Source of the DNA: Candidatus Omnitrophota bacterium
GTDB lineage: Bacteria > Omnitrophota > Gorgyraeia > 1-14-0-20-64-10
Assembly: GCA_016177405.1 (NCBI GenBank)
Contig: JACOVG010000027.1
Coordinates: 14,733-78,732, forward strand
DNA length: 64,000 bases
Reading direction: 5' to 3'
The notes under the pieces are model-generated. The model ran no database searches and was not told the origin of the DNA. It saw only the letters and a program-made list of their open reading frames with translations. Position numbers and translations under genes: made by a program. Shown piece by piece: positions 24,118 to 58,161 of the stretch. Position 1 is the stretch's first letter. Every line of letters starts with the position of its first letter.

Positions 24118-27105
24118 ATGAGGCCAAACCCGCGATTCTTCTTAGCAAGATTTTTCGCCCCTTTGCTCTCGCTGGGGCTTGCCCTGCCCGATGTCTCTTT
24201 CGCACTTCGGCAGAACATCGAGGGTACCACCCAAGCTGGCTTAGAGGAGGCCCTTCGGCCCATTGTTGCCGCCGGCTTGGAGGAGGAGAGGAGACTGTCG
24301 GAGGCCTTGGAGGGGGCGGCTTTCCAAGGAGGGGCGCGTCTCATGAAGGACATCATCCGGTGGGCCGAAAAAGATCTGGCGGCAGCCGAAGCGGCAACCG
24401 CCGGTTTTTACGAGTTTTCTCAAGCGCGGCTCCCGGATTCGGTCGGCCAAGACAGTAATGGATCAGGCCATCTTATCGCCAGGTTTCTGCGGCTCGCCCA
24501 AAGAGCTCCCACCAGCCCTCCTCCAGCCTGGCCTCGGGCGGGGCCGAGTCAGGAAGAGTCCGCCGGGTCTGACGGAAGGCAAAAAAGCCGTCTCCTGAAG
24601 GCGCCCAAAAGCTATTTCCCCTGGGCCGGCCCCAAGGAGTTTCAGGCAGGCATGAAGGCCGCCCGGGAACGGTTGGCCACAGCGGGGACGGATGAGGAAG
24701 AGGAAAAGGATCCCCCCAGCAAAGAGGAGATCAAGCGGCTGGAAGGGCCCCTCCACCAAGGGCTTCACGCTGAAAACATCCTCCGAGACTATTCGCGCCT
24801 TGTTCAGGAGGCGGAGGATCTGCTGGTCCGGCTTCACCACAGGCTTATCCTCGCTTGCATGAAGGATAAAGGGATTACGCGCGACAGGGATCATCAAATC
24901 TTTGAGGATGTACGCCAAGGCGGCTACCTGGCCTTGCTAAACGCGATTCGGAACTACAATCCCAATCAAGGAACCGCCTTTTCCACCTATGCCTACCAGG
25001 CCATCCGCCGGGAGATCCACGACACCCTTCAGGCGATGTCCAGAAGACTTAGAATTCAGCCGGACGATCTGGAACTCTTTTTCAAGACCGCCCAAGAGCT
25101 GGAGAAGAAGCAGGGGATAGAGCCAGGGCCCGAGGAGATCGCGGAGGTCTTAGAGAAAGAATCCTCTTGGGCCGAGGCGATCTCCCATTGGAGGCAAAAC
25201 CCAGACTCCCTCAACCGGCCGGTAGGCGACGCCCAGCTTCTTGATCTCATCGAGCCCGAACCATTGGAGCCAGAATGGGAGGAAATCGAAGAGGAGAAGC
25301 GCGGCGTCCGTAAGGTTCTTGAGGCGGTGCGCCGCGAGAGCCCCGATGGCAGGCGAGACGCGCTGGTCCTCAAACTTTATTATGAGCTGGGAACCAGGAA
25401 TGGCCCTTACACACAGGAGTGGATCGCCAAGAGAACGGGGATCACCCCTCAACGGGTCAGCCAGATTATCCAGGATGGCATCCAGACGGCCCAAGAGCGT
25501 CTTGAGCTGACCCGTGAAGGGCGCGTGGAACCGATTCGTCCCGAGGCCCCCGGCCCCGCCGCGGGGGTTGCTTCCGGCGACGGCCGGGACAACGATGCCG
25601 ATGTCTATCTGATCGACGTGATGGGGATTCCGTACACGAGCCCCCTCTTTGAGCCGCTAAGCCGGCTTAAGAGGAGAGATCTCGAGAAGATCCAAGGGGC
25701 GCTGTCGGCCCATAGGCCCTTTCCCCTTAAGATCAAGCCAGGGGAATCTTTCCCGCGGCGCTTGACGCGGATCCGCCAATTTTACGGCCTGACCTCCAAG
25801 GCGGCAGCCCAAGGGGCAGGGGTGAGCGCGACAACCTACTCCGCCTGGGAGAACGGGCGCCAGTTGCCCAAGGGAGATTCTCTCAAGCGGCTGGCCCGCT
25901 TCTATGCTGAAGCCTACCGTCTCCATCCGGACGCGGTTCAGAGATACTTGGGGATGAGATCTCCTTGGTCGGTCTTAAGAAAGCTGAAGGGCAAGCCCTC
26001 GCGGCTGATCCTGAAGGGTCTGCGGGTTTCACAGTGGCACTCCGCCGAGGGATTCGCCAGGGCCGCGCTGCCCGGGATGAATCCAAAGAGCTACGTCTTA
26101 TGGGAGAAGGGAAGGAACGTCCCGCCGCTGGCCTTCTTGAGAAGGATCGTCTCCTTTTACGTGAGAGAGCGGGGTTTTCCCCAGCGCTCCCTGGAGAGGA
26201 CCCTTGGGATTCCAAGCCCCAAAGAGGTTCTTAAGGAGTTGAAGGGCAGGCCCCTGCCTGAAATACTGCGCGGCCTGCGCGAGTCGGTTCCCCTGACCAT
26301 CGCCGAACTGGCCTCTTTGGCAAAGATCGGCCCCAGAACCGTCACCCGGTGGGAAAAGGGCGAAGTGGTTCCCCTGCCGGCCAATCTTCGGAAGCCGGCG
26401 GAGGTTTATGCGCGGGGGGGTCATTTTCCAGAGAAAGAGCTCTTGGCCCTTTTGGATATCCCTTCGACAGAGCTGTTTCTTCAAGAGATCGCCTCTCGCC
26501 GGGGCGATGGGCCCAAGCTTCTTGATTCGCTGGAACACTACCTCGGCCTTTCCCAGTCTGGGATGGCCCGCCTGGTCGGTGTCGAGAAATCAACCTATCG
26601 GTTTTGGAAGCAAGGGAGGATAAAGCCGCCTCTTTCCCGGCGCTATCAAATGGTTGCGCGCCTCGCTGAAGAGGGCCGCCTTCCTGTCGAGCCCCTCCGA
26701 GAGGCCTTTGGCCTGGATGGGCCCGAGAAGACGTTGAGCCGTTTAAGAAGCATGCCGTTTCCGAAGGCCCTCCGGCACCTTCGCTGGGTGTACGGCATCG
26801 GAATGTCGAAGGTCGCCGGCCGCCTCGGTGTTTCTCGGTTTACCTACCGAGGACTGGAAAAGAGGGGGACCTTGCCGGCCCGATATCTTCCGACGCTGGC
26901 CGCTTATTACAGCGGTCTGGATGGCCTGCCTTCGCCCAAGCTCTTGGCTGCCCTTGAGGCCGGCCGTCAAAGGTGGCAGTCGGCTGATCGTGTCCGCAGG
27001 ATGGCGGCCGCCCCCGCCGCGCTCTCCGGCGCGGGGCTGGAGGAGGGTCTTTCGGAGCGGCTTCAGAGAGAACGCGGGACCGCCTGGCTCGGCGGGCAGG
27101 CATAG
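24118..27105 (+). CDS. GLEE-punctuated family protein: leader, sigma-70-like module (regions 2, 3, 4), five tandem HTH (XRE-like) repeats of about 85 aa each
   Basis: The start is set at the second ATG (MRPNPRFFLARFF...) because the first ATG lies inside the conserved promoter-like box. Leader ends ...VSFA-LRQ. GLEE at aa 48 and 60 (24097 numbering) and AGLEE 23 aa before the stop. FSTYAYQAIRREI (region 2-like) and LKLYYELG...TQEWIAKRTGITPQRVSQI (region 4-like). Five repeats carry the wEkG core of Cro/C1-type HTH. Confidence 0.6.
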   Translation: MRPNPRFFLARFFAPLLSLGLALPDVSFALRQNIEGTTQAGLEEALRPIVAAGLEEERRLSEALEGAAFQGGARLMKDIIRWAEKDLAAAEAATAGFYEFSQARLPDSVGQDSNGSGHLIARFLRLAQRAPTSPPPAWPRAGPSQEESAGSDGRQKSRLLKAPKSYFPWAGPKEFQAGMKAARERLATAGTDEEEEKDPPSKEEIKRLEGPLHQGLHAENILRDYSRLVQEAEDLLVRLHHRLILACMKDKGITRDRDHQIFEDVRQGGYLALLNAIRNYNPNQGTAFSTYAYQAIRREIHDTLQAMSRRLRIQPDDLELFFKTAQELEKKQGIEPGPEEIAEVLEKESSWAEAISHWRQNPDSLNRPVGDAQLLDLIEPEPLEPEWEEIEEEKRGVRKVLEAVRRESPDGRRDALVLKLYYELGTRNGPYTQEWIAKRTGITPQRVSQIIQDGIQTAQERLELTREGRVEPIRPEAPGPAAGVASGDGRDNDADVYLIDVMGIPYTSPLFEPLSRLKRRDLEKIQGALSAHRPFPLKIKPGESFPRRLTRIRQFYGLTSKAAAQGAGVSATTYSAWENGRQLPKGDSLKRLARFYAEAYRLHPDAVQRYLGMRSPWSVLRKLKGKPSRLILKGLRVSQWHSAEGFARAALPGMNPKSYVLWEKGRNVPPLAFLRRIVSFYVRERGFPQRSLERTLGIPSPKEVLKELKGRPLPEILRGLRESVPLTIAELASLAKIGPRTVTRWEKGEVVPLPANLRKPAEVYARGGHFPEKELLALLDIPSTELFLQEIASRRGDGPKLLDSLEHYLGLSQSGMARLVGVEKSTYRFWKQGRIKPPLSRRYQMVARLAEEGRLPVEPLREAFGLDGPEKTLSRLRSMPFPKALRHLRWVYGIGMSKVAGRLGVSRFTYRGLEKRGTLPARYLPTLAAYYSGLDGLPSPKLLAALEAGRQRWQSADRVRRMAAAPAALSGAGLEEGLSERLQRERGTAWLGGQA

Positions 27106-27171
27106 GGGCGGATTTTTTTGTCTTGGGAATTAATTTATATGCAAAATATTTATTGATTTATAACTATCGGT

Positions 27172-27752
27172 GTGTTAAGCTTCCTCCCCATGATGAAAAG
27201 AGAAAAACACAAGCCACTTCCAACAGCGCAAGTCGCGCAGAGGATCCTTTTCATCCGCGGGCAGAGGGTGATGCTGGACAGCGACCTAGCGGTCCTTTAT
27301 GGAGTTGAGACCAAAGTCCTTAATCGAGCGGTGAGGCGGAATGAAGCCCGCTTTCCTGCAGATTTTATGCTCCAACTCACCCAAGAGGAATACAGATTTT
27401 TGAGGTACCAATTTGGCACCTCAAACTTGAGGTCACAAATTGTGACCGCAAGTTCCAGGCACGGCGGGAGACGCTATCTGCCCTTGCTTTCACCGAGCAA
27501 GGCGTCGCTATGCTCTCAAGCGTTTTGAATAGTGAGCGAGCAATTCAAGTGAACATCTCCATCCTACGGGCTTTCGTGAGGCTGCGAAGGCTCTTGGCCG
27601 CCCACAGGGGGCTTGCCAGAAAGCTGGAGGAGATGGAGAGAAAATACGACGCCCAATTCAAGGCGGTGTTTGACGCGATCCGACAGCTTATGGCGCCGCC
27701 GAAAGAATCCCGCCGGAAGATTGGGTTTCATACCCAAGGGTGCAGGGCTTGA
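27172..27752 (+). pseudogene. ORF6N-domain (KilA-N-related) gene disrupted by a 1-nt deletion and a roughly 33-nt palindromic insertion; paralog of 29615..30148
   Basis: Two overlapping ORFs (27172..27528 and 27510..27752) together align colinearly with the intact paralog ([18 protein letters not shown], RFPxDFMxQL, ...[20 protein letters not shown]). Relative to the paralog, one base is lost after GGRRYLP. An extra segment made of two back-to-back perfect hairpins is present at 27418..27447. Confidence 0.6.
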
Positions 27753-27781
27753 ACCCGGCTCCCCTTACAAAGGAGAAGACG

Positions 27782-28267: not shown

Positions 28268-29521
28268 ATGCGACTCTCCCAATGCCCTGGCAAAGTCTTC
28301 AGCGTGAGGGTTGTTGCCACTTTTCTGGCCCTGAGCCCCATTCTGTCTGCGCCCGCCCTTGCCCTGCGTGACCCAGAAGCGCGAGAGAAGAAGCCGGAGG
28401 TTCTGGGTGGTCTGGAGGAGGTTCTTCGCGGCGATCCCACTACTTCTGCAACGGCTCCTTCCGCGGCTGTCTCCCTAAGCTCCGCCGCCGGGCTGGAGGA
28501 GGGGTATCGGGTGGTACCTGTGACGGAAGAGTACGCCCTGCGGCACGCGGAGGAGTTGGCGGCCATCGATGCGGGGGATCCCGTGTGGAAGAAGGAAGGG
28601 CGTTGGGGTCCGGAGCGTTTCGCCACGGACGTGCGGCCTACCACGGGGACGCGGCTACAGGGTCTTTGGAAGTTCAGCTTCGTTGCGGAGGATGTTTCGG
28701 GGATTCCCGTGGCCTATATCTACGCAGCCGATGGCCAGCCGGACATCCCCGTGACCGCAAGGTACCGCGGGGCGTTTATCGCCCGGGTGAGTGTACGGCC
28801 GAACCAACAGGGACGCAGATTGGGCCCGCGTCTTCTGTTGGCCGTCGCCCGCGCGGCGAAGGAAGCTGACGTAGGTCCCTACGTGACGCTGGAAACGGAC
28901 AAGGAGAACACCCGCGCCCGCCATGTGTACGAGTCACTGGGTTTTCGGAGCGTCGGGGAACGGCTTGAAGAAAAGAAGGGAGTTACTTTCATCGAGTACG
29001 CTGTTCTTGTAGAAAACCTCATCCAGCGCGCGGAGGAGAAGCTCGCCGCCGGCCTGGAGGAGTGGGTGCCGAGGTGGCTGAAGGGACTGGCGACGCCTGA
29101 GGAGTTGGAGCATTGGATTCATCATGGGCACGAAGCCCTGGCGGGGTCTCCGTCGGTGGCGGTGCTGTTTGATCCGGGCTTGGTGCCTGGGAGGGACGAC
29201 GGGGATCGGGAGCTGTTGCTGCTCGAACTGGAGGGACAGATGCGGTCGGTGTTTGCCTTGCCGGAAGAGGTACGGTTCCGGATTGGACTGCGGGGGGCGA
29301 AGGCGGATTGGGAAAGAGAATTCCGGATTATCGAGGTGGTGCGGCATCCGGAAGGCAGGCCGGAGGCCCCTCCCCTTCCGATGGGTGCGTTGCCGTTGGT
29401 GGTTGCGGAGGCGCTGGCCTCTCCCCACCCGCGGTTCTATACCGACCCGCTGATTTACGCCGATTTGACGGAGCTTACCCTGCCGCAGGCCCTGACGGAC
29501 CTGACGGATCTGTTCGCCTGA
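28268..29521 (+). CDS. GLEE-punctuated family protein: leader, GNAT acetyltransferase domain, unknown C-terminal domain
   Basis: Leader ...PALA-LRDPE. GLEE at aa 48, 75 and 262. Canonical GNAT motif A (ARVSVRPNQQGRRLGPRLLLAV) and motif B (YESLGF). TATAAT lies 12 nt before the ATG and there is no SD. Confidence 0.65.
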   Translation: MRLSQCPGKVFSVRVVATFLALSPILSAPALALRDPEAREKKPEVLGGLEEVLRGDPTTSATAPSAAVSLSSAAGLEEGYRVVPVTEEYALRHAEELAAIDAGDPVWKKEGRWGPERFATDVRPTTGTRLQGLWKFSFVAEDVSGIPVAYIYAADGQPDIPVTARYRGAFIARVSVRPNQQGRRLGPRLLLAVARAAKEADVGPYVTLETDKENTRARHVYESLGFRSVGERLEEKKGVTFIEYAVLVENLIQRAEEKLAAGLEEWVPRWLKGLATPEELEHWIHHGHEALAGSPSVAVLFDPGLVPGRDDGDRELLLLELEGQMRSVFALPEEVRFRIGLRGAKADWEREFRIIEVVRHPEGRPEAPPLPMGALPLVVAEALASPHPRFYTDPLIYADLTELTLPQALTDLTDLFA

Positions 29522-29614: not shown

Positions 29615-30148
29615 ATGCGGAAGAACCCTCTTGCTCTCGCCAGGTCAGTTCATGCGGAAATCATCGAGCGCCGGATCCTGCTGATCCGTAAGCAGCGGGT
29701 CATGCTGGATTCGGATCTGGCCCAGCTTTATGGAGTAACCACGTTTAACCTCAACAAGGCCGTCAAGCGCAACAGGGAACGCTTTCCAGAGGATTTTATG
29801 TTCCAGTTGTCCGTGGGAGAGGCCGGAAACTTGAGATTCCAATTTGGAATGTCAGGTTGGGGAGGCAGACGCTATCTTCCATACGCCTTCACTGAGCAGG
29901 GAGTGGCTATGCTCTCCGGCGTTCTGCGTAGCAAGCGAGCCATCCAAGTGAACATCGCCATCGTGCGGGCATTCGTGCGGTTGCGGCGAATGCTGGCGTC
30001 ACACCGTCACCTGGCGCAGAAGCTGGTGGAATTGGAGCGCAAGCTCGCGAATCATGATCAGAAGATACATTCGATCTTCGACGCGATCCGGCAGCTGATG
30101 GCGCCACCCGCTCCGGCTCGACGCAGGATCGGTTTTCATTCCACGTAA
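29615..30148 (+). CDS. ORF6N-domain (KilA-N-related) protein
   Basis: 177 aa. [42 protein letters not shown] is the ORF6N signature. A TTGACA-17-TAGCCT promoter-like element sits upstream. Confidence 0.7.
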
Positions 30149-30160
30149 AGGAGGCAAACG

Positions 30161-33996: not shown

Positions 33997-33997
33997 G

Positions 33998-34936: not shown

Positions 34937-34953
34937 TCGCTGCCCTTTGTTTG

Positions 34954-35037: not shown

Positions 35038-35044
35038 GAAAAAG

Positions 35045-37724: not shown

Positions 37725-40700
37725 ATGAAAACAACCCCGATGCGGCGTTTCTTTTTTCTCCGCTTTGTGAGCGCTTTTCTTATTCTCACGCTGGCCGTTC
37801 CCTGCCCAGCCCACGCCCTGCGCGCCGAGGGTCCCACCTCCAGCAAGGTTGCGGCCGGCTTGGAAGAGGCCCTCGGATCTAAAGCCGCCGACCCGCCGAA
37901 GAAGTCCAAGATTGATGTACGGACGAAAGAACTGTCGGTAAAAGACACCGTGCTGACGGTTCAACCCCTTTCACCGGACGATCTCCTGAATTACCGAGAG
38001 GATCTTTGGGAGCTCCTTAAACTCATCCCTACGGACATTCCGCACGATGAAACAATCATAGATGAGATGCGGCAAGGGAAGTGGTACGACCGGGATTTAA
38101 GTTTCGCGGTCTGGGATAAAATGTCGAATCGCCCCATCGCTCTGGCCACCCTGATGATCTCTACAGATCCCCGCTACAAGCTTGGGACGGCGGTCATCCT
38201 TGAGAACTTCGCTGTCCATCCGGATTTTCAGGGGACCCCCGCAACCAGCTGGCTGCTCCACCGTGCCTTTTCCAACGCGCACGCGCTCCTTTCTCGACTT
38301 CATAAGGGGGGACCTCTCTATGCGCACCTGCTCACCATGAAGGGGGGTCGTCCGGATAAGCTGGGTTCAGAACGGGCGGAGCGTTTTTACACCAAGATGG
38401 GAGGGGCGGTCAAGACAAGAATCCCGGTAGGTTGGGAGGTTAAGGCCGGAGAATTCGAGGGTCATGTCTTCAAGAATCCTCATCTGGAGTTTGAGTTTGC
38501 CCTTCCTGGATGCCTCGCGACGATCGAGCAGGAGTTTCAAAAAAAGCTGTCCTCCGGCCTGGAGGAGACGCAGGCGGTGGAGGTTCTTCAATGGAGCATG
38601 GAGGATCTTAGAGAGGTCCTAAGGAAGCGCGGTCTCCTTCGGCTGGGTCAAACCGATGACCAAGCGGCCGAGCTGGCCTTGAAGATGACGCTTGAGGAAA
38701 GATTCAAAACCCGGCCAACGAAACCGATTCTCCTTCGGGTTCTTCCTTCTAACCAGACGCAGGCGAGATCTCTGGAGGAGATCGGGCTTCAGCCTTTGGT
38801 GAGCCGAGAGGATATCGTAAGCCGCCTGGAACTTAGCGCTTATGAGGACCACGCCATTTCCCGCATCCGCCTGGAACAAGAAGGAGAACACCAGCATCTC
38901 TCGGTGCCTCTTTCCAAGCCGCTTAAAATTCCTGGGACAGGGCAATCTCTTGTGGAGGTCCGGATATCGTCCGGAGACCGGCGTTTTGATCAGCTTCCAG
39001 AGGTGTCGCGGCTTGTCCAGGAGCTTCGTGAAAGGAAGGCCAGCGCCTCCGATAAGCGAGATTTCCTCCAAGAGCTGCCCGGGCGGCTGCGAAACGGGAA
39101 GCTTCGCCTCTCTCACCTGCCGGCGTTTCCGCTTGGGTTGAGGGAGGAAGCGGACGTAGAAACGTTTGCCCGACGGGTTCAGCTTGACCCCTCCCACTCA
39201 AACCTTCTGGTATCGGAGGGGAAAGCCCAGGAAGCGCGCGAGCGCGAGGAACGATCCGCCAAGGCGAAGCCTCGAGAATCTCTTCCGGCGGAACCTCCAA
39301 AGAAGGATAAGCCCCCCGCGGCTGATCAGGAATCGGTGGCCCAGGCGCGCGAACTGGCCCGGAAGATTGCGCCGGAGGCCGCCCACGCCCTGGAGAGGCT
39401 TCTTAAAACCTTGGCTCTGGCGGCCTCTTGGGCTGGGATGCCGCCCAATTCAAAGGAGGTTGAAGCGCTGGGGGAAGAGATGCGCCGAGCCCTTGAGCCA
39501 GAACAGGTTGTGAGGAACCACGTTCGGAAAGGCCGCGCGCCTAACGAGGAGGAAGCGAAACGACAGCTTGCCCTGCTGGAAAAGCAGCTGCGGGAACGGA
39601 TGAGGCGATTGTACAAAACGAAATCAAGGGATGAGGTGGTAGCTTCCTTTCTCTCGCAGATTCAGCGGATGGCGACGGAAAAGAATTGGGCCAGCTATTG
39701 GTGGCTGGATCCGGACGTCGAAGTGCCTGTGCCCGAGGCGGTGACGGAGCTCTACCTGGTGGATCCTCCCGAGCTGGATGAGGCCGCCACCGCGGTCCTC
39801 TTGGAAGCGACCCGCTTGCTTCAGGAGGCCTTGGTACACCATCCGCCGGAAGATCCGAAGAGCTTGCTGTTTCTTCGAAAACTTCAGCTTAGCGGGGTGA
39901 GCTACTTGGCGTCAAAGAAAAAGCTTCCCACGGAACTGGCCGACGCCTTCGTTCGCGACCCAGGGACCTACCAGGGGGAGCTTTGGCTGGTGCGCCAGAA
40001 CTTTTGGTACCAGAAAATGCGCACGCAGAAGATTAGCGAAAACCACACGGGTCCACCGGGCTTGGTGCAGAGAGCTCCTCGTAAGGGGAGGGTGGAGAAT
40101 TCCAGCCATGAAATTGATTTTGGAACCCCCGGGCAGCTTTCAAGATCCTCTTTGAAGAAGATGCTTCTGACCAAGATGAAGCTGGTCCAGCAGCCCGTCG
40201 TCAGCGCTCCCCGAACGAATGGGGAGCCCGCAGGGCCGACGTATGACGACCATACCCGAGCCTTCATCCTTCTGGAGGTGGCCAGTCAGCCGGGGCACTT
40301 TTCGAAACCTGGAAAGTTGGAGGACGAGAGAAAATCATTCCTGCGGGTTATGTGGATTAGGGTAAGCGAGTTACAGCGCGCGCTCAAGCAGCCTGAACCG
40401 ACGTTTAAAGATGCCTACCAAAGAGGAAGACCTTTTCTTGAAGCCATTCAGATACCGGAAGAGGTCAGGCGGGATGTCCTCTTGGAGGATCCCGCGGCCG
40501 TTATCAACCTCTCTGCGATTATGTTGGAGGTGATGGCCCGGATCGCCCAGAAGCTGTCAAGCGATTTTCCGTTGGAAGAGGGTCTCGAAGGTAGTCGGGT
40601 CTTGCGCAGAGAGCTGACGTGGCGCTACCCCGCCTATCGGCCCTGGTGGCCCGGTCTGGCAGCCGCCGGCAAAGGTCAACCCTCCGCCGGCCCCTCGGCA

Positions 40701-43700: not shown

Positions 43701-46004
43701 AGGAGAGTGAGGCAAACCGCCCGGGCGTGGAAAAGGAGGGGATGGCTGCGCTCGACCAGGGCATTCACCCAACCGGTCGTGGAGGCGGCGCGCTATGCCG
43801 AGATAGGCCTTCAAAAATCTCAAGGCAAAATGGGAGGAAGGCAGAGGATTTGGGAAAAGCGACTTCGAACCGTCATGGCCTTCAGCCGCTTTTTGCAGGC
43901 CCTCGAGGCCGATTCCCCTTCCCAGAGCCCCGCGAGAATCCTGGAGGGTTTTTCCCGCGGCCGATCCGGCGAATGGATCGAGTTTCCCGGCTCGGAAGGG
44001 GAGGCATTCCGGGTGAGGGTGGGGATTCGCAGGAGGACCAACCGCGGGGTTGGCCCGCGCAGGGTTGTGCCGCTTATCTCGATGAATTTTGAGGAAGGAT
44101 CTGCCTCGGACGGCCCTTTCCGTCCCATTGGCTCTGTGAGGATTGGTACGGATGAGGACGGAGGCTGGGAAAGGCCCCTGGTTCACCTGGACCTCTCCGA
44201 TCCCGTCAGAGGCGGCAGACAGAGGAATTGGTTTTCGCACGGCGAGATGGCCCTTGCCTGGTCTAACTCGCTAAGGGCTGGCAGGATTCATGAGGCCTTC
44301 GGCGGGTTTCTCAACAAGCTCATCCGCCACATCGAAGCCCTCCCCCGGAAAACAGCCGCTGGGCTGGAGGAGGGGGAAGAGGTGCAGAAGAAATTTAAGG
44401 AAACACTGCTCCGGCTGAATCCGGCTTGGAGACCTTTTATTAACCCTCTCGGTCCCGAACAGCTGAAAGATCTCATGGCCCAACCCTCCCGGGCTTCCCG
44501 ATGGCTGGGCCCACTTTGGGGGGGGATGGGGGGACGTAAGAAAGAACGGATGGAGGCGGAGCTTCAAGAGGCGAAGGGAGTTGCCGATCGTTACGCGCAG
44601 TGGTTAAGGCGGGAGAAACAGAGGCGCTCCTCTCCAGAGGGAATCCGACGCGCGATCGAAGAAGTAAGCCACAGGATTTTCCAATTGGAGCCGCCAGACC
44701 TTCGTGCATCGGTAGGAGAAGTCACGGCAACCATGACTGGCGATCCGCAGTTTTCGGGATTGCGCTACATCCCCATGAGAAGAATGGTCCAGGCGCTTCC
44801 TGTCCTCTCTGAAACGCTGGGGTTGGTCCCAGGCCCAGGCAGGCGCTTTCTGGAGATCGGCGCAGGTCCTGGCGGTGGAATGGGCCTTGTTGCTGCCCTG
44901 AAGGGAATGGAGGTGTTCCTGGTGGAGACCGACCAGCCCTTCGATGTGAATCTGGGTGAAATGAGGGAACATTTTCAACGGATGGACCTCACCTCAGAGA
45001 CGCTGGATCAGATGACGGCGAAAGGTGGAGTGGCGAAGGTAAATCCCCTCGAGAAGCTGGAAAAAACTCTGGCACCCCACCGGGAGGCGATCAAGGCAGC
45101 CAACGGTTCTGTGACCGTCATTCCCGGCGACTTCTCCCGTCCCGAGGTGCAGAAGAAGGTTATTGAGGCCGGACCCTTCTCCATTATTGTGGCAACGGAC
45201 GTAGTCGATCCAGCCGGCGGACAATTTAGAGCCTCACTGGGCGCTACCACAACGGGAGAACCCTCGGCGGCGAGGGCCATTCTCGAGGGATTGGCCAAGG
45301 TGGCGTCGGCTTCCAGTGAGAGGGGGAGATTGTATGTGAGTTTCGTGGGCAGTGAGATGGGTCTCTTGGGCTCAAAGGTTCAAGAGACTTACCAGACCCT
45401 TGAGGAACTCCTTCGAGCCGAGGGTCTTCCGGCAGACCGTTTTGAAATGGCGCCCTCTCCTTCATCAGGGGGAGTTCTTCGGGCTCGGATTTATCGCTTA
45501 GACGGCACCCCCACGGAAGGTTCCTTCCAATCTTTAAGTGAGGTGATGGGGGCCGGGCTGGAGGAGAAGCCGGAATGGGTGCAGGGGATCCGGGCGGCGC
45601 AGAAGCTGGGCAAGGTGGCGGTGCTGTTTGATCTGGAGCTTTTGGCTGAACTGGGAGAAGATGAATTTGCGCTTCGGATGATGCTCGTTGAGCTGGGAGG
45701 CATCTTGCGGAATACCTTGGCTTGGCCCAAAGAATCTAAGCTTCGGCTCGATTTGTCCAGCGAGGCGGATGAATACGTTGGGGAACAGGGGTGGGAGGTG
45801 ATTCGTGTGGTTCGGGATTCGACAAGGGGTGAAGACGAGGAGGCGCTGACCGTGGCCTCACTGCCAGGCATTGTTGCCGAAGCCCTTCAGGCCCTGGCGC
45901 TAGGAGGCGAAATCTTCCCGGTGGTGGTGGGGGTCTATCGAGCGGGGCTGAAAGAGAAAACCTTGCCGGAGGTGTTGTCGGATATGGCCAAGCAATTCGC
46001 GTAA
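37725..46004 (+). CDS. Giant (2759 aa) GLEE-punctuated family protein: leader, GNAT-like, unknown 740-aa region, TPR, PPP-type phosphatase, Fic-like, unknown, class I methyltransferase, C-terminal domain
   Basis: Leader ...CPAHA-LRAEG. GLEE at aa 45, 278, 1017, 1424, 1793, 1979, 2213 and 2611, each at a domain boundary. PPP motifs GDLHGD and GNHE, with GDYQDAG in place of GDxVDRG. Fic-like core HPYDDGNGHTGW. MTase motif I LEIGAGPG. TPR repeats at aa 1050-1400. The first domain is homologous to a domain of the 54178 protein (LIPTD...LSFAVW...AVHPD[FY]Q.TP...WLL..AF, NPHLEFE). Confidence 0.65.
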   Translation: MKTTPMRRFFFLRFVSAFLILTLAVPCPAHALRAEGPTSSKVAAGLEEALGSKAADPPKKSKIDVRTKELSVKDTVLTVQPLSPDDLLNYREDLWELLKLIPTDIPHDETIIDEMRQGKWYDRDLSFAVWDKMSNRPIALATLMISTDPRYKLGTAVILENFAVHPDFQGTPATSWLLHRAFSNAHALLSRLHKGGPLYAHLLTMKGGRPDKLGSERAERFYTKMGGAVKTRIPVGWEVKAGEFEGHVFKNPHLEFEFALPGCLATIEQEFQKKLSSGLEETQAVEVLQWSMEDLREVLRKRGLLRLGQTDDQAAELALKMTLEERFKTRPTKPILLRVLPSNQTQARSLEEIGLQPLVSREDIVSRLELSAYEDHAISRIRLEQEGEHQHLSVPLSKPLKIPGTGQSLVEVRISSGDRRFDQLPEVSRLVQELRERKASASDKRDFLQELPGRLRNGKLRLSHLPAFPLGLREEADVETFARRVQLDPSHSNLLVSEGKAQEAREREERSAKAKPRESLPAEPPKKDKPPAADQESVAQARELARKIAPEAAHALERLLKTLALAASWAGMPPNSKEVEALGEEMRRALEPEQVVRNHVRKGRAPNEEEAKRQLALLEKQLRERMRRLYKTKSRDEVVASFLSQIQRMATEKNWASYWWLDPDVEVPVPEAVTELYLVDPPELDEAATAVLLEATRLLQEALVHHPPEDPKSLLFLRKLQLSGVSYLASKKKLPTELADAFVRDPGTYQGELWLVRQNFWYQKMRTQKISENHTGPPGLVQRAPRKGRVENSSHEIDFGTPGQLSRSSLKKMLLTKMKLVQQPVVSAPRTNGEPAGPTYDDHTRAFILLEVASQPGHFSKPGKLEDERKSFLRVMWIRVSELQRALKQPEPTFKDAYQRGRPFLEAIQIPEEVRRDVLLEDPAAVINLSAIMLEVMARIAQKLSSDFPLEEGLEGSRVLRRELTWRYPAYRPWWPGLAAAGKGQPSAGPSAELGAGLPQKGAPVYGPHEGGPKTSGLEETEGKPKSTEEWFQAGLEFLQEKDFPSAAIAFRAVTDLDPGLGEAWSNLAIALLEQGLLEEALAASQKAVIHLPNCAACWLILGNIHRNAGRLSKAINAYGTALELDPKLSQAHSQLGLTYHRMAVLILGRQPPPDSAESETAKEWLHLAKEAYKAAIGLNPDDPLTLNNLGNVFLSLGDPASAEENLRGAVMADPEYLNPWINLGHLYRETGRFSDAAKALCEVLKLKPEDFDAWDLFLKMRLDSRGQGLERIGRLHLIWHSILRFSRAAKSPEEMPELARRLEDVKNHGFLPSDVPFILGIPGGSPERMWSLFFEKKAIRKRFLALGGILIAMDGAWRTNADAGRSLSPDERIRQLTEDTTRGLGELHTETGLPFLDLDGDPELMDVIARTLQFLLSPPPEAGLEEKIERFGELVRQAGKILDGQTKQGLLKPKIQQIQEERFFIEGGIAYLPHRQGKAVVIGDLHGDLEALQRTLKMVRKETGYDPKTNKNSAAPVYLVFVGDYQDAGSQSLEVLLTVLDLYAEDPNHVILLGGNHERGRAQYWSPDVRAEGPDSHWFFKDINKIVGRKKGGTLYDRWHRLCLKMPVLAVASQGLVVAHAGSSNTVLEGPGIAEKYGEKLDPRKGLLGIAQSRDLQDQISWNPMPSPKTEEALQQAQQAPDRRNDAFRRLNPRRQKRGFWTGREGFDVFMEAIGGKVMARGHDRLAPWWVTLFNGRVITLIGTHHQSPHYGYRKDQITARFAVFDLAKSYDRVDPGEVLRFPWGKPSAKSGLEETQELIDRLANSEEPITEADVRELNGHYQEPSSPTYREAMTLPPNAEHEAAGGFRPEAPIAEQMSDFLKWLNTAAGSRQDPRVYPSLGQSIPDRKPWNLDWNDPATHAAMAHWLFHQVIHPYDDGNGHTGWALLNILRRRAGLPPVRFLAEREAGYLKTFRLNRDPFPYLQFMEEPTGMQAEGGLEEGMRKWRPELTRRVRQTARAWKRRGWLRSTRAFTQPVVEAARYAEIGLQKSQGKMGGRQRIWEKRLRTVMAFSRFLQALEADSPSQSPARILEGFSRGRSGEWIEFPGSEGEAFRVRVGIRRRTNRGVGPRRVVPLISMNFEEGSASDGPFRPIGSVRIGTDEDGGWERPLVHLDLSDPVRGGRQRNWFSHGEMALAWSNSLRAGRIHEAFGGFLNKLIRHIEALPRKTAAGLEEGEEVQKKFKETLLRLNPAWRPFINPLGPEQLKDLMAQPSRASRWLGPLWGGMGGRKKERMEAELQEAKGVADRYAQWLRREKQRRSSPEGIRRAIEEVSHRIFQLEPPDLRASVGEVTATMTGDPQFSGLRYIPMRRMVQALPVLSETLGLVPGPGRRFLEIGAGPGGGMGLVAALKGMEVFLVETDQPFDVNLGEMREHFQRMDLTSETLDQMTAKGGVAKVNPLEKLEKTLAPHREAIKAANGSVTVIPGDFSRPEVQKKVIEAGPFSIIVATDVVDPAGGQFRASLGATTTGEPSAARAILEGLAKVASASSERGRLYVSFVGSEMGLLGSKVQETYQTLEELLRAEGLPADRFEMAPSPSSGGVLRARIYRLDGTPTEGSFQSLSEVMGAGLEEKPEWVQGIRAAQKLGKVAVLFDLELLAELGEDEFALRMMLVELGGILRNTLAWPKESKLRLDLSSEADEYVGEQGWEVIRVVRDSTRGEDEEALTVASLPGIVAEALQALALGGEIFPVVVGVYRAGLKEKTLPEVLSDMAKQFA

Positions 46005-47822: not shown

Positions 47823-47848
47823 GGGAAGGGTGTATACTATCTTTTGCC

Positions 47849-48247
47849 ATGGAAGCCGCGCCCCAGAATTCCGTCGAATCCCCCGTGGAGCGGCGCCGCC
47901 TGCCCCGCCTTCGGACGGTCCTGCCGGTGCAGTTTCGCAGCATCGCGAAACCGGAGGAGCCCTTCAGGGGCTGTCTCTCGAAGGACTTGAGCGCCGGAGG
48001 GATTCGCGTCACCGTGACGGGGTTCCTCGCGAGGGAGGCGAGGCTGGTGCTTCTGTTGTCTCTGCCGGCCCATCTGAAGCCCATCCGGACCATCGCCCAG
48101 GTGGTCTGGGTTCAGAAAAAGTCCTTGACCGAGATCTGCGATTGCGGCATCCGTTTCCTGGAAGTCAGCCCGCAGGACCGAGAGCTGATCGCCGATACGG
48201 TGGAGCGGGGCGTCGTCGGCCGCGTCGGCTCCCGCGATCGGTTTTAA
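47849..48247 (+). CDS. PilZ-domain protein (c-di-GMP-binding type)
   Basis: RRRLPRLR...LSAGGIRV pattern (RxxxR and D/NxSxGG). Confidence 0.65.
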   Translation: MEAAPQNSVESPVERRRLPRLRTVLPVQFRSIAKPEEPFRGCLSKDLSAGGIRVTVTGFLAREARLVLLLSLPAHLKPIRTIAQVVWVQKKSLTEICDCGIRFLEVSPQDRELIADTVERGVVGRVGSRDRF

Positions 48248-48262
48248 CCTCTTTAAGACAAG

Positions 48263-49225
48263 ATGAAAAAGACAATCCGAATTTTAAGTTTCCTTTTCCT
48301 GTGGGCCCTGGCCGCCTCCGAGGTTCAGGCGGCCTGGGTCTGGACGCCCCAGACCCGCCGGTGGGTCAACCCCAAGTACGCCACCAAGGACACGCCCAGC
48401 GCCCAGATGGATTGGGCCTTGGGATTCTTTGAGGATCGGGATTACGCCCGCGCGGCCAAGGAATTCATCCGGCTGGTGCGGGCCTTCCCCCGGTCGGAGA
48501 CGGCCCCGGAGGCGCAGTTTTTGGCGGGGGTTTGCTACGAGCAGTTGGACCAGCAGGGCGGGGCCCTGGCGGCCTACAAGAAGCTGATCGAAACCTACCC
48601 CTTTTCCTCCCGGTTCAAGGACGGCATCGAACGGGAGTTCGCCATCGCCGAGTCCTTCTTTTCCGGCAAGCCCCTGCGCGTTTTTGGGCCGCTCAAGCTG
48701 CCTTCCCTGGACAAGGCGGTAGAGGTTTACGAGCACGTCGTGTCCCAGGCCCCTTACGGCGAGTATGGAGACCGGGCCCAGTTCAGGCTGGGGGAGTGCT
48801 ACCGGAAGCAGGAGCGCTTCGAGGAGGCCAGCCGCGCCTTTCAGAAGCTGATCGATGAATACCCGGCCTCCTCCCTGGTGGAGCAGGCCAAGTACAACAT
48901 GGCCTTCTGCGCCTATCGGCTCTCCTTGAAGCCCAGCTACGATCAGTCGGCCACCGACGAGGCGATCCGCTGGTACGAGCAGTTCATCGCCACCCATCCG
49001 GAGAGCGATCTCATCCCGGAGGCCCAGCAGAGCCTGAAACAGCTCAAGGAGTTCAAGGCGCAGGGGCTGATCCAGATCGCCGAGTTTTATGAGGTCCAGA
49101 ACAAGCTTCGGTCGGCGGCCGTCTACTACCGGCAGTTGATCGAGAGCTACCCCCAGTCTCCGCAGGCGGCCAAGGCGGTTTCCCGGCTGACCGAGCTGGA
49201 GCAATCCGGAGCGCTGAAGCCATGA
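48263..49225 (+). CDS. TPR-repeat outer-membrane lipoprotein, BamD/YfiO-like
   Basis: Signal peptide MKKTIRILSFLFLWALAASEVQA. Several TPR-like helices (EAQFLAGVCYEQL, DRAQFRLGECYRKQ). Located upstream of lptE. Confidence 0.5.
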   Translation: MKKTIRILSFLFLWALAASEVQAAWVWTPQTRRWVNPKYATKDTPSAQMDWALGFFEDRDYARAAKEFIRLVRAFPRSETAPEAQFLAGVCYEQLDQQGGALAAYKKLIETYPFSSRFKDGIEREFAIAESFFSGKPLRVFGPLKLPSLDKAVEVYEHVVSQAPYGEYGDRAQFRLGECYRKQERFEEASRAFQKLIDEYPASSLVEQAKYNMAFCAYRLSLKPSYDQSATDEAIRWYEQFIATHPESDLIPEAQQSLKQLKEFKAQGLIQIAEFYEVQNKLRSAAVYYRQLIESYPQSPQAAKAVSRLTELEQSGALKP

Positions 49226-54177: not shown

Positions 54178-57100
54178 ATGAGAAGACCTACCGTTGCGCT
54201 GGCCACAGGCGCCTTTTTCCTTGCCCAACTCTTTGGGCCGGGGCCCTCCCATGCTCTCCGCCCGCAGCAGGACGTGAGGGTCGGCTTGGAGGAGGCGCTC
54301 GCGCCCGCCGCTGGGCTTGAGGAAACGGCGAAGGCGGCGAATATTATCCGAAAGAACCACCTGGTGGAGGGATTACGCGGAGGCGAGTCAGACGCGACGG
54401 TAGTTTCGGCCTTCCTGAATCAGATACGAAGGCCGCCAACGGATGCGATAGCCATCTCAAGGCCCCCCTTGTCTGAAGAGCCGTACCGGACCGGCCCCCT
54501 CCTGCGGCGGGAGATGGAGAAGGTATCGTGGGGCAGAAGCTACGATGAAAAATACTGGCTGCCGGCCTTGGAACTGGTTCTTCAAGCGGCGGCCAGGCGG
54601 TTGAAGGTCGCCCCCAAAGAGCTTGGTCTCGTGAGCATGAAGCATCTCATGAGGCATCTCTTTCATGCCCGCGATCTCCAAGGGGATCTTCTCATGGGGG
54701 AGGATTCCGAATTGGATCTCTTCCGCTGGGCCTACCGGGAGATTCCCCGGACGGTAGCGCCCAAGCTTGCCTCCGGGGAGATCGATTCAAAGAAGCTCCA
54801 CGACGCCCTCGCCAATCCCTTCAAGGATTCCAACGATCGAGGCAACGACCAGGTGCAGCAAGCGATCTTTGAGTTGATGAGGGAGCATCCCGAACGGTTT
54901 GTAGATGATCCGAAAGAGCTGAAGGATAAGCCGCTGGAAGAGCTCGCGCCGATCGTCGAATCCTGGGTTCGCTTGGCCCTGGCCGCCAACCGGGTGGATT
55001 ACAGCCGGCCGGTGGCCTTGAAAGAGATCGAGAGGGTAGGAGGTCTGATTCCCTTTGTGAGGCGGGGGTTAGACACCCCATTTCTCGAGGCGCTGGGGCG
55101 AGACAACTATCTTAAGGAATTTGTTCAGCAGACCCTCGTCGGCTCTCCCGAGGTCTTTTTGGTCTATCTCGCCGACAACAACGCCGAGCTGACCGCGAGC
55201 TTGAAGCTGGCAGAGGTTCTCTTGTCGGCCAACCCCAACCTGGAGATCGCCTTTGTGGTCAAGGAGGATAACGGCGTCATGAACGACGCCTCGCACGAGG
55301 ACGCCTGGAGGATGATTTCCCACCAGCGCGATGGGGTGCCGGACATCTACGAGAAGCTGCGCGGCTATTTTCCAGATCGGTTCAGACTGCTTAAGGGACC
55401 CGGCTCCCAGGGGCTTCCCCTCAACGCCTTGCGAGCGGATGTGGCCGAGGCCTTGAGAGAGGCGGATGTCATCCTGGCCGAAGGGGAGGCCAACACCTGG
55501 ACGTTGAACGGACTGGACAAAGAGAGAATCTATCTTGCCTTGCGGCTAAAACAGGAAACATGGACGCGCCTCGTGTGGGGCATCGGCAAGGAGATTCTTT
55601 CTGATGATAAGCTGAAGTCCGAACAGCCGCCCGTCTTCGTCCGGATCGATGGGGCCCAGGGGGCATACTACCAGAACCCGCTCAAGGACCCCGACGGGGA
55701 AAACCCTTCCTGGACCATCTTAGAGAACTTGGACCCCTTGAAGCCGGCCCACGCGGGCTTGGAGGAGAAGGTGGCGCGGATATTGCCCGAGCAAATACTC
55801 CGGCAAGATTTCGGGAGGGTAAGGGAGGTTTCCTTTTTAATGGGTGGAGGGCTCGCGGCCTCAACGGAGAAGGCGCGTTTCCTGAAGTGGGATTCTTTCG
55901 AAGGCGAGCCGAGGGTTTTTGGGCACGACTCTTTCAAAACAGTTGTTTTCAGCCGCGGCGGAAATACCATCGCTTACGTGCCTTTCGATCAGACTGAAAA
56001 TAAGGGAGTCTCGGTCTACGATCTCGCCGAAAGGGCTGGCCGATTCATCCGAGTGGAAGAAGCCCGGGGCCCTGTCTTTCAGGCGGCGCTCGATCCCGAT
56101 GGAAAGCGATTGGCCCTTCTGTTTCTCGGCGAACCTAAAACCAAGGGAAAACCTAAGATCAAACTTCAAGTGAGAAATTCCACAACGGGCGAGCTTGAGC
56201 ACGACCTTGATATTTCAACGAAAGGCAAAAAGGTGCCGCTCCTTTTTACTCCTGATGGAAAGAAGCTGATAGCGGGGGAGTTTTTGGGCGATAACCCAGG
56301 TACCTCCCTCCGGTTTCTGGATCTTGAAACGAAGAAGGTTCATCCCTTGGCAGGCTCTTCCTCCGGCCTGCTCCAGTCGCTCCAGGCCTCCGACACCGCT
56401 TTGGTGGCCGCGGTGGCCGATGCCGATGGCAGCCGGTTCTACGCGATGACTTGGAATCTTACGGGAAAACCCACATCTCCCCGCGCCTGGCCGTTAGATC
56501 ATTCGGCGAGGTCGGTGGCCCTAAGCCCTGATGGTCGAACGATTGCCACCGGTAGGATAGAAGGGGAAATCCACCTTTGGGAAGTTGGCACGGGAAAAAA
56601 GAAGGCGATCTTGGAAGGCCACACCGGCGAGGTTTCCGCGCTGGCCTTCAGCCCGGATGGCAAGCGGCTGGCCAGCGGCAGCCGCGACGCCACGGTCCGC
56701 CTCTGGGACCTCGCCGGGCTGGAGGAGACGGAACCCGGCGTGCCATCGGCGGATGTGCGTTCCGGAGTATTGTCTGTCTATGGAAAACAGGCCCAGGCGC
56801 GTCCGCTGACGGAAACGGAGCTAAGAACGCACGAAGATACGTTCCGTGGGTTGCTGGAGTTGATCCCCACCGACAAAGATCGAGAAACGGATTTTATGGA
56901 CAGGCTTTTGAAAGGACACGAAGGGCCTGATCCGGGTTTAAGCTTCGCGGTTTGGACAGGGGGGCGCCCCATCGCGGTGGCGATCTTGACGAAATCGAAG
57001 AATCCCCGCTATCAAAATCGAAAGGCGGTCGTTTTGGAAGATGTCGCGGTGCATCCGGACTATCAGAGGACCCCGATCGCGGCTTGGCTGCTTTACCAGG

Positions 57101-58161
57101 CGTTCGCCAACGCTGCGCAACAGGGTTATTCATACGCCCATTGGCTGACGATGAGCGGCGGCCCTCAAAAAGAGGGTTGGCCGAATAAGTGGCCCGGCGC
57201 GGAGCGATCCGTCCCATTCTACAGGAAGTTCGCCGCCGTCATCAGGGAGGTCCGAATCGGTGATGCGGCGGCCGAATTTCCTGGGTACGCTTTCAGGAAT
57301 CCACATCTGGAGTTTGAGCTGGAACTGCCGGCCGGACTTGGCCAGCTCAAGACCAGTTTCGACGAGAAATCGAAAGCGCTGGTTACCGTCTACGGCGACC
57401 CTTGGGGCGAAGGTGTTCTGGACATCAGTGTTGAAATTCCGGTTGAGCCGGGAGCGAAGCGATCCGAGTTAGAGCGATTGCGGGATACTGCCGCGGATCG
57501 CCTGCACGAAGCGTTTCGTCAAAGCGCGTTGGTTTCACAAACCTCCTTCACGCTGACCCGTTTAGACGACAGCCTTTACTTGAGAGACCAAAGCGATGAG
57601 GTGAGCATACCCAACATTCATTTGTGGGAGGCGATCAAGAATACGGTGGATGCCTTGGCGGACCGTGCCGACGTGGAAAACCGGAGAATAGACGGCACGT
57701 TGTACGTTCGCGTTAGACGAAGAGAGGATCGCTGGCGAATTGAGTTTTCGGATAACGGCATCGGCTTTCCGGAACCCCCTTCAGATGTGTTCCGTTATGG
57801 ACCGTCGGCGCCCAAAGACAAAGAGCGCCGCTTGGGTTCGTTGGGAATGGCGTTAAAGGAGGGGTATTACGGCAACACGTTTTTGGGGCGGCACAGCGGT
57901 TTGTTGGTGATCGACAGCACGGATCGAAATTACAACGGTAGGCGAATGGTCTATGACGCGGTGGAGAAGAATGTTTTTCAAGAGCCCAGCCAAAGGAATG
58001 GCGGAATAGGGACGACGGTCATTTGGGAGTTCGGACCTTTGGCTGCCGGGCTGGAGGAGCCGCGGGCGGAGGCCCTGCGGGATGCGGGGTCCCCGCAAGC
58101 CCTGATCCCGACGTTTTCCGAAGGACTCAAGCAGACGCTGGAGTTGGCGGATGACCCCTGA
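54178..58161 (+). CDS. Large (1327 aa) GLEE-punctuated family protein: leader, DUF89-like, WD40 beta-propeller, GNAT-like, GHKL-type ATPase
   Basis: Leader ...[9 protein letters not shown]. GLEE at aa 36, 46, 527, 847 and 1291. DUF89-like motifs ([24 protein letters not shown]). WD repeats ([31 protein letters not shown]). GNAT-like domain paralogous to the first domain of the 37725 protein. Bergerat-fold motifs EAIKNTVDA (ExxxNxxDA) and DNGIGFP. Confidence 0.65.
   Translation: [1327 protein letters not shown]

Follow-up and report, generated by a model that had tools for sequence, protein, structure and literature searches.

A Gly-Leu-Glu-Glu motif at module starts in a family of shuffled multi-module proteins from a genome labelled Omnitrophota and from other metagenomes

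Viruses and a few toxins are known to make multi-module proteins that are cut into working parts; their junctions are either loose or cut by a protease of the protein's own. Here we describe a family of bacterial proteins in which the tetrapeptide Gly-Leu-Glu-Glu (GLEE) stands at the starts of modules. It was found on a 64,000-nt stretch of DNA (the window) from a metagenome-assembled genome labelled Candidatus Omnitrophica/Omnitrophota (taxonomy throughout is that of the submitters' labels). Four genes of the window, all on the + strand, belong to the family: A (24118..27105; 995 aa; NCBI MBI1953606.1), B (28268..29521; 417 aa; MBI1953608.1), C (37725..46004; 2759 aa; MBI1953617.1) and D (54178..58161; 1327 aa; MBI1953628.1). 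The family is defined by a leader (signal peptide, A-x-A, LR, spacer, G[LM]EE), at least two motifs at module starts and, optionally, a C-terminal domain (CTD) ending in ...LTDLFA; A–D each have the leader and three to eight motifs, and B and C have the CTD.

In the MARTX toxin of Vibrio (RtxA), unrelated effector modules are freed by cleavage of the linkers between them, with a Leu at the site. Like A–D, MARTX is a giant chain of unrelated modules, with repertoires that are shuffled between strains; unlike them, it has no signal peptide at its N-terminus and leaves by type I secretion, carries glycine-rich RTX repeats, and is cut at loose sites by its own cysteine protease, which is activated by inositol hexakisphosphate (InsP6). 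No RTX-type match to Pfam or NCBIfam and no embedded Peptidase_C80 (Pfam) was found in A–D, all four of which begin with a signal-peptide-like leader. Once exported, the gingipain/HagA precursor of Porphyromonas gingivalis (type IX secretion system, T9SS) is cut between its modules, at defined residues; it resembles the present family in its (here predicted) Sec signal peptide, its several modules and the conserved domain at its C-terminus. The VENN (CdiA) and PxxxxDPxGL (Rhs) pre-toxin motifs of polymorphic toxins are thought to serve recombination and processing, and there too a short conserved peptide marks the boundary of cassette exchange. However, a polymorphic toxin has one junction, which joins a constant trafficking region to one variable toxin at the C-terminus, and its gene is followed by an immunity gene, whereas the GLEE proteins have up to eight junctions, constant ends and a variable middle, with an ORF6N/KilA-N gene downstream and no evident immunity gene.

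Viral polyproteins cut by 3C-like, Glu/Gln-specific proteases have a strict junction peptide that co-evolves with the protease, with a small residue after the acidic or amide one. The GLEE proteins also carry the same short peptide at each junction, but the viral protease lies within the polyprotein and acts in the cytoplasm, whereas the GLEE genes are cellular and their products apparently exported. Arrays of unrelated enzymatic and DNA-binding domains, as found here, also make up the polyvalent proteins of phages and conjugative elements, which Iyer, Burroughs and Aravind reportedly predicted in 2017 to be processed after delivery. The genes of polyvalent proteins lie on mobile elements, and the proteins usually bring their own peptidase, whereas the GLEE genes are chromosomal, have a Sec-type leader and no shared peptidase, and are flanked by LeuRS, ComEC, UvrC, SecA, PurH, FolC and AccA genes in conserved synteny. 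A periplasmic protease that releases a giant exported protein at a small-residue motif ending in Gly is LapG, which cuts LapA-type adhesins at [T/A/P]AA[G/V] (10.1101/198937); LapA, however, has a single N-terminal site, in the retention module of an RTX adhesin of type I secretion.

Long proteins of Omnitrophota have been described with methyltransferase (MTase), GHKL, GNAT and ROK domains, 94% of them with a signal peptide or transmembrane helices (10.64898/2026.06.07.730766), and a study of giant genes left their cleavage open, the lack of known cleavage points having blocked the analysis (10.1101/2023.11.21.568195). These proteins (West-Roberts 2023; 2026 preprint with 176 complete Omnitrophota genomes) have the phylum label in common with the GLEE proteins and a similar repertoire of domains (GNAT, GHKL, MTase, ROK, TPR and WD40) behind signal peptides, but they are 10–147 thousand amino acids (kaa) long, often have many transmembrane helices, and no junction motif has been reported for them. 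The long multi-enzyme proteins of the phylum are an open puzzle, for which the GLEE family offers precise candidate cleavage points.

The exact motif occurs eight times in C, five times in D and three times each in A and B (19 in total). This agrees with a first-pass annotation of the stretch, which had listed the same four open reading frames (ORFs), the same counts and, for C, the same positions (aa 45, 278, 1017, 1424, 1793, 1979, 2213 and 2611). That annotation had also found GLEE in no other protein of the window, which holds: a six-frame translation of the 64 kb contains 20 GLEE, of which 19 are inside A–D and none is on the minus strand, and the 20th (16474) is out of frame within a radical-SAM/lysine-2,3-aminomutase-like gene, in an R/G/P-rich translation without a Pfam match. 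The amino acid composition of A–D would predict 0.42 GLEE, so that the 19 observed are a 46-fold excess, and other family members contain 115 where 2.1 are expected (GMEE is enriched 29-fold). Variants with one residue changed (GLE[^E], GL[^E]E, G[^L]EE and [^G]LEE) occur at 0.3 to 1.9 times their expectation; GLDE, GLED, GLDD and the reversed word EELG are absent, Asp never standing in place of Glu. Because the variants remain at background, GLEE is a discrete motif rather than a compositional tendency. Nor is it frequent in unrelated proteins, which would have spoken against it: a contrast set of 11 unrelated TPR giants has one GLEE in 28 kaa, and across locus L006 it is found only in the family member P0003.

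Residue −1 of the motif is small at 27 of 28 sites (A 22, S 3, G 2; the remaining site has V), while residue −2 is Ala at only nine of the 28 and variable otherwise; the prefix is therefore less strict than the [AS][AG] proposed at first. Upstream of the motif, a stretch of six residues resembles a linker and is rich in P, S and K, with Pro, Lys and Ser frequent at −4 to −6. A profile of the 44-aa motif context had no match at E ≤ 10 in an index of 5.8 billion proteins, because the motif alone holds too little information, and a full-text literature search returned no mention of a 'GLEE motif' (matches to the string AGLEE were unrelated). The junction mark is previously undescribed, and no database model covers the family.

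The four proteins begin with related leaders (all on the + strand): that of A (24118..24207) is MRPNPRFFLARFFAPLLSLGLALPDVSFA followed by LR (A-x-A as SFA, then LR; Sec type by eye), that of B (28268..28363) ends in ...SAPALA, that of C (37725..37817) in ...PCPAHA and that of D (54178..54255) in ...GPSHA, each again followed by LR. Each has a basic n-region and then a short run of hydrophobic residues (type R-F-L-S-A-F-L-I-L-x-L-x-L-P), which A-x-A and L-R follow, and the consensus among relatives is ...P-A-x-A-L-R-(P)-x-x-(N)-A-G-[LM]-E-E. Reading these features by eye, we infer that the leader is a cleavable Sec signal peptide. A Tat signal was rejected, as most leaders have a single Arg and proteins of this kind are generally held to be far too large for that route. 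A profile built from 17 leaders matched only four short fragments. NCBI gene calls trim the conserved leader (A is called with 980 aa, B with 405 and C with 2754), and the gene at the D locus of L009 is called from 26808, where an in-frame ATG near 26505 (26505–26810) restores a full leader, MKPTKTALQTALGLFLCLALALPGSSYALR...ASGLEEK.

The first GLEE of A–D lies 9–20 aa past the A-x-A site, often with a second copy 6–23 aa further on. Doubling of the post-leader motif is very common (copies 6–40 residues apart, e.g. GLEE-ALRPIVAA-GLEE); it is seen in the window at 24238–24285, 54283–54324 and 28409–28501, and in P0015, P0016, P0022, P0034, P0037 and P0058. If both copies were cut, a short peptide would be released.

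Behind the leaders, the layouts of the four proteins differ (all motif coordinates are on the + strand). In A, GLEE at aa 41 (24238..24249) and its doubled copy at aa 53 (24274..24285) are followed by a single 920-aa module, which contains sigma-70 regions r2, r3 and r4 and several Xre-type helix-turn-helix (HTH) domains, and then by GLEE at aa 973 (27034..27045) and a 19-aa tail. In B, after GLEE at aa 48 (28409..28420), a GNAT module starts at aa 75 (28490..28501) and the CTD at aa 262 (29051..29062). C consists of the leader and eight modules, each of which opens with GLEE: GNAT-like (aa 45, 37857..37868), a 739-aa uncharacterized module (aa 278, 38556..38567), TPR (aa 1017, 40773..40784, 7 aa ahead of the first TPR match), PPP phosphatase (aa 1424, 41994..42005), Fic-like (aa 1793, 43101..43112), a second uncharacterized module (aa 1979, 43659..43670), MTase-like (aa 2213, 44361..44372) and the CTD (aa 2611, 45555..45566). 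D has GLEE at aa 36 (54283..54294) and aa 46 (54313..54324), an ARMT1/DUF89 module, GLEE at aa 527 (55756..55767), a WD40/beta-propeller module, GLEE at aa 847 (56716..56727, 2 aa past the last WD dipeptide), a GNAT+GHKL module, and finally GLEE at aa 1291 (58048..58059) ahead of a 33-aa tail.

The motif was at first thought to stand at every domain boundary, which goes too far: the 920-aa block of A contains several domains and no internal GLEE, and the GNAT and GHKL domains of D share one module with no GLEE between them. Rather, GLEE delimits the shuffled modules and not each Pfam domain. The 'SAM methyltransferase' assigned to C has a motif-I-like stretch (FLEIGAGPGGG) but no Pfam match at E ≤ 0.1, and we call it MTase-like; the two uncharacterized modules of C have no sequence relative in the PDB. 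The domains behind the leaders of A–D are of types that are usually cytoplasmic. The repertoire includes GNAT, Fic, PPP phosphatase (Metallophos), SLT, GHKL and MTase-like domains, a sigma factor and arrays of Xre HTH domains, as well as a ribulose-phosphate epimerase, a pyridoxal-phosphate (PLP) enzyme and a DEAD-box helicase. The deposited names of the products of A–D are only 'sigma-70 family', 'GNAT family' and 'TPR protein'. All four genes were assembled independently out of several sequencing runs.

Modules are exchanged between these proteins, with the motif at the exchange boundaries. The 739-aa and Fic-like modules of C are both found in P0003 (3913 aa), in reverse order and with a GLEE start in both proteins (C aa 278 aligns with GLEE at aa 1132 of P0003, and C aa 1793 with GLEE at aa 477). 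The PPP module of C (1424–1793) corresponds to P0026 (1421–1774) and P0034 (1028–1383), aligned from the motif in each case, and the module that follows the Fic-like one (C 1979–2213) to P0034 (1383–1595), again aligned from the motif. Further pairs, likewise aligned from the motif, are the MTase-like module of C (2213–2611) and P0058 (217–508), the GNAT module of B (75–262) and P0020 (251–448, where the motif is GAEE at aa 251), and C 45–277 and D 847–1064; even the motif ahead of the 33-aa tail of D aligns with a GMEE (aa 509) of P0024. The shared modules are only 27–57% identical. Among all non-CTD alignments of the family, 67 out of 136 internal ends of high-scoring segment pairs lie at most 25 aa from a GLEE; when the motifs were placed at random in 1000 permutations, the count averaged 20.8 and never exceeded 43. 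Moreover, many of the segment pairs begin 1–4 aa from GLEE in both partners.

Different proteins of the family are also found at corresponding loci of different genomes. For example, the B locus (from M48 and upstream genes to ORF6N-ComM) holds B (417 aa) in the window, P0003 (3913 aa) in GCA_964373715.1 and P0022 (1372 aa; epimerase, PLP enzyme and ROK kinase) in L013. The interval from LeuRS to ComEA/ComEC holds C in the window and P0026 in GCA_947085675.1, and past UvrC the window has D where GCA_947085675.1 has an HTH/MTase/ROK protein with the same leader. Modules are thus independent evolutionary units: paralogs, and likewise positional orthologs, differ by the swapping, reordering, gain and loss of modules. 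The suggestion that GLEE is the linker signature of a shuffled-domain family has support in that homologous modules open with the motif in either protein of a pair, module orders differ and syntenic loci differ in module content. The motif positions also follow module boundaries in homologs; had they not, this would have spoken against the first-pass description of the motif. The word 'effector' in that suggestion is an interpretation, and the modules also include a sigma factor, HTH arrays and metabolic enzymes.

The motif is conserved at the level of the peptide. At 34 motif sites in six genes, Gly is written with four codons (GGC, GGG, GGT and GGA), Leu with five (CTG, TTG, CTC, CTT and TTA) and Glu with two (GAG and GAA), which agrees with the synonymous variation described in the first-pass annotation. 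Given that modules are only 27–57% identical and that the synonymous codons vary, the invariance of the motif argues for selection on the amino acids. A DNA uptake sequence or another strand-symmetric DNA motif was rejected, as the motif is found on one strand, in one frame and in these genes only, and with synonymous variation. A subclade of proteins with a CTD ending in ...LYA (P0036, P0044, P0049 and P0053) has Leu at position 2 in only one out of 10 sites (the rest have M, Q, A, V or I), as compared with 131 out of 145 elsewhere (Fisher p = 7e-8), and the leader, internal and pre-CTD sites of this subclade are altered together. Such a coordinated change of position 2 is expected if the sites share one recognition partner, and it points to selection on the peptide by a putative co-evolving reader.

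The CTD of B (29051..29518, +; aa 262–417) is an alpha/beta domain that ends in ...TLPQALTDLTDLFA-COOH, and that of C (45555..46001, +; aa 2611–2759) is 31% identical to it. The domain is about 150 aa long, opens with GLEE and closes with ...LTDLFA or ...KQFA in B and C, and has no relative in Pfam, NCBIfam or PDB. A tblastn search past the ends of A and D found no remnants of it, and the idea that these genes have lost a CTD whose remnant persists was rejected. A CTD profile matched only 50 proteins at E ≤ 0.001 among 1.84 billion representative proteins, and the domain is at the C-terminus in nearly all complete-looking matches, its start being almost always G-L-E-E-R-x-P-x-W-L. These 50 proteins contain 123 GLEE over 41.6 kaa, where about 2.5 are expected. 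The family, at first described with four members, has at least 50 further proteins with the same grammar, of 0.4–3.9 kaa; this census is built on the CTD, so that members without it, such as A and D, are under-sampled. A metagenome scan gave seven more loci with GLEE-rich ORFs (two contigs hold two such ORFs each), and a CTD scan of a collection of species-representative genomes gave two tiny contigs labelled 'uncultured Planctomycetia'. The same scan of viral contigs had no match. Among the results of a search with full-length C, TPR proteins crowded out all of the family but P0003, and exact look-ups with C and D returned no recorded contig.

We tentatively favour the explanation that GLEE is the recognition site of a trans-acting, site-specific protease that splits exported polyproteins into their modules; we would put it somewhat short of an even chance. 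A chain with its leader would go out through Sec. A site-specific endopeptidase, co-evolving with the motif, would then recognise A-G-L-E-E at every junction, free the chain from its leader and separate the modules from each other, so that the genes would encode polyproteins. The scissile bond might be G|L, with Leu or Met in the hydrophobic S1' pocket of a metalloprotease. The residues seen at position 2 (L and M, and in one clade I, V, A and Q) resemble the S1' preference of zinc metalloproteases. The motif also stands after the leader and before the tails of 19–33 aa, where no domain flanks it, and there 'release' fits better than 'linker'. Cleavage is also favoured by the nature of the modules, enzymes and regulators of unrelated function that have no evident need to remain joined. 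It is the most economical reading of a motif that is strict and acidic-specific, stands at each module start, where exchanged blocks begin and end, and changes in concert in one clade. The linker-like residues upstream agree with it, as does a predicted structure of the CTD in which confidence is lower at the motif (pLDDT 61–68) than in the domain (>90) and Gly breaks a helix.

A candidate for the processing enzyme is an M48 zinc metalloprotease gene (23193..24014, −), the divergent neighbour of A, whose product has the HEIGH motif and a signal of the lipoprotein type (lipobox FSGC). An ortholog with 57% identity (L013, 4226–5008, −) is divergently adjacent to the GLEE gene P0022. It is a weak lead, and the arrangement may be plain synteny. 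In locus L006, a gene for an exported, transglutaminase-like protein with a cysteine-protease fold (23430–23975, +; 181 aa) lies 1.7 kb downstream of P0003; it matches DUF553 (28.3 bits) and, at 26.4 bits against a cutoff of 27, Peptidase_C93/BTLCP. This gene adjoins one for a 1352-aa RHS-repeat protein.

Several observations weigh against the protease explanation. The M48 adjacency is seen in two genomes only, within a syntenic block, no protease is consistently adjacent to the GLEE genes, and the borderline transglutaminase-like gene is near P0003 only. No protease domain is common to the family: there is no peptidase among the 25 commonest Pfam families of 35 members, nor any peptidase Pfam match in A–D (E ≤ 0.01, or E ≤ 0.1 for modules without a first-pass match). 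The prediction of export depends on a reading of the leaders by eye. The motif codons are biased to GCC-GGS-YTG-GAG-GAG (GAG 84% as compared with 62% in the background, and GCC 80% as compared with 43%), which possibly reflects preferred codons at critical residues or some homogenisation by recombination; preferred codons at critical residues are reportedly what selection for translational accuracy predicts (Akashi, in 1994). In an AlphaFold model of full-length B (unreliable for residues 1–250), a helix of moderate confidence passes through the motif at aa 262. Finally, some CTDs hold extra GLEE at three fixed sites inside the confidently folded domain (P0019, P0024, P0025, P0030, P0032, P0034 and P0040; L008, at 678 and 759; and L011), where B has LELEG, ADWERE and ADLTEL. 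One of these sites is about 20 aa from the C-terminus (Y-A-G-L-E-E-V-T-L-P-E). An efficient protease would destroy such CTDs unless the sites were buried, and none of the explanations considered here accounts for them.

If the proteins are indeed cleaved, the bacterium would use polyproteins as a general export route for regulators and enzymes, the presence of cytoplasmic-type domains such as a sigma factor behind signal peptides would be explained, and the protease would have a new specificity, possibly useful as a tool. Should cleavage be disproved, GLEE would still be the mark of the breakpoints at which a natural system shuffles modules. In either case, the strict tetrapeptide, the leader and the CTD give exact candidate points for cleavage or docking. 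We are more doubtful about a wider proposal, namely a cellular, chromosomal polyprotein system in which Omnitrophota-like bacteria export chains of enzymes (metabolic ones among them), a sigma factor and HTH regulators, which are cut at A-G-L-E-E by a dedicated protease and possibly delivered into a host or prey. If true, the junction would be the first defined 'grammar' for the long proteins of the phylum, and the CTD would be a new export or assembly module.

The motif could instead be a short linear docking motif that is not cut: one partner would bind it repeatedly, and the proteins would stay intact for handling, sorting or assembly. We consider this possible but rather unlikely. Candidates for the partner are a periplasmic chaperone, a component of an outer-membrane translocon, a TPR-type clamp for acidic peptides and the family's own CTD. 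The strictness of the motif, the selection on the peptide and the change of position 2 in one clade would suit any co-evolving binder, and doubled motifs after the leader could raise avidity. Docking would also tolerate extra GLEE in folded CTDs more easily than cleavage would, and it agrees with a CTD that is nearly always led by the motif and has no known fold relative. However, a docking motif need not mark every module start exactly, nor the tails of 19–33 aa, and tethering unrelated modules brings no obvious gain. Cleavage and docking are each compatible with all the findings.

A third explanation, which we regard as unlikely, needs no dedicated reader: GLEE would be structural punctuation (Gly as a helix breaker, Leu-Glu-Glu as an N-cap) that is kept uniform through cassette exchange, the 12–15 nt of GCC-GGS-YTG-GAG-GAG serving as junction microhomology. 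Modules are exchanged with breakpoints at the motif, as this would require, and the B locus has constant ends (leader and CTD) around a variable middle. In the predicted structure of the CTD, the Gly breaks a helix and LEE begins a short one. The motif codons are more uniform than the background usage. The low GC content at third codon positions (GC3) of A–D and the ORF6N gene (0.66–0.72, as compared with 0.74–0.91 in the surrounding housekeeping genes) would be expected of mobile or fast-turnover DNA; together with the atypical codon usage it could also reflect low expression, and the motif codons follow the GC-rich preference despite the low GC3 of their genes. Such uniformity, however, is hard to reconcile with a motif that is invariant between modules with 27–57% identity and is written with all the synonymous codons. 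A helix cap would accept Asp, Ser or Thr, whereas GLDE, GLED and GLDD are absent and variants matching three of the four residues are at background, and a coordinated shift from L to M, Q, A or V in one clade is not expected of a cap. RecA-type recombination needs more than twelve nucleotides, and a 12-nt identity would be too short for it.

It is very improbable that the signal acts in translation, with the GGAGGAG within CTG-GAG-GAG as a Shine–Dalgarno-like pause or as a site of internal initiation for each module. Although 16 out of the 19 sites in the window contain TGGAGGAG and GAG is over-used at the motif (84% as compared with 62%), GGAGG is common along the whole genes (there are 56 in C, of which eight are at motifs), so that the junctions are not special Shine–Dalgarno-like sites. 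Two sites with GAA lose the element, the conservation of Gly and Leu would not be required, and the motif is kept in a single frame, as a peptide; in-frame starts at most 12 nt downstream were seen at about five of the 14 sites inspected by eye, with inconsistent spacing. That GLEE arose by chance from the composition of proteins rich in Ala, Gly, Leu and Glu (G 8%, L 12% and E 8–10%) in a high-GC genome can practically be dismissed in view of the 46- to 55-fold enrichment, the background level of the variants and of the reversed word, and the absence of the motif from all other proteins of the window and nearly all of the TPR giants (1 in 28 kaa).

Several described processing signals were also compared with the motif and rejected. 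The LapG site does not fit, as A-A-G is read at only nine of the 28 junctions, few of them with T, A or P ahead, it is L-E-E that stays invariant, and RTX motifs are absent. Leaders of the C39 double-glycine kind have a GG, GA or GS pair at P2–P1, whereas the residue ahead of the Gly is Ala at 22 out of 28 of the present sites, and the sole C39 match (NF033920) aligns to the TPR of C, far below the cutoff. There is no hydrophobic segment past the site, as there would be for prepilin-type cleavage after Gly, and sortase, exosortase and rhombosortase signals were rejected since no transmembrane segment follows and no models match. Curated NCBIfam and Pfam models for LPXTG, PEP-CTERM, GlyGly-CTERM, the T9SS CTD and Tat had no matches.

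Genes A–D are scattered among housekeeping genes (PabB-like, PurH, FolC, AccA, LeuRS, ComEC, BamD, LptE, MurJ, UvrC, SecA and Lnt), and there is no secretion or protease operon beside them in the window. Directly downstream of B is an ORF6N/KilA-N-type gene (29615..30148, +), and a second ORF6N copy is directly downstream of A (27172..27734, +), split over two frames by a frameshift or as a pseudogene; the public gene call there is an 80-aa ORF instead. An ORF6N/KilA-N gene lies 60–200 nt downstream of a CTD-bearing GLEE gene in seven loci: the window and six others (L006 21943–22440, L007 3419–3694, L008 1030–1395, L011 1537–1767, L013 9587–10075 and L017 619–1110). Matches of the ORF6N gene include a PHROG of phage anti-repressors and, as a strong one, PDC-S05 (E = 5.5e-57), a candidate defence family of PADLOC. 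The pairing of ORF6N and CTD-bearing genes is an association; with the low GC3, this neighbour leaves some mobile ancestry possible.

Elsewhere in the window, two genes have no Pfam match, one by D (58622–59431, −; 269 aa) and one by ComEC (47830–48432, +; 200 aa). A tandem pair of ATP-grasp genes of the D-Ala-D-Ala-ligase-like kind, together with the radical-SAM/lysine-2,3-aminomutase-like gene downstream of them (13511–17083, +), may form a small cluster for amino-acid modification or peptide ligation. The only Rfam/ARAGORN matches in the window are a tRNA-Leu(CAA) and an adjoining tRNA-Ala(GGC) (34953–35120, −), which lie between a response-regulator gene and the LeuRS gene.

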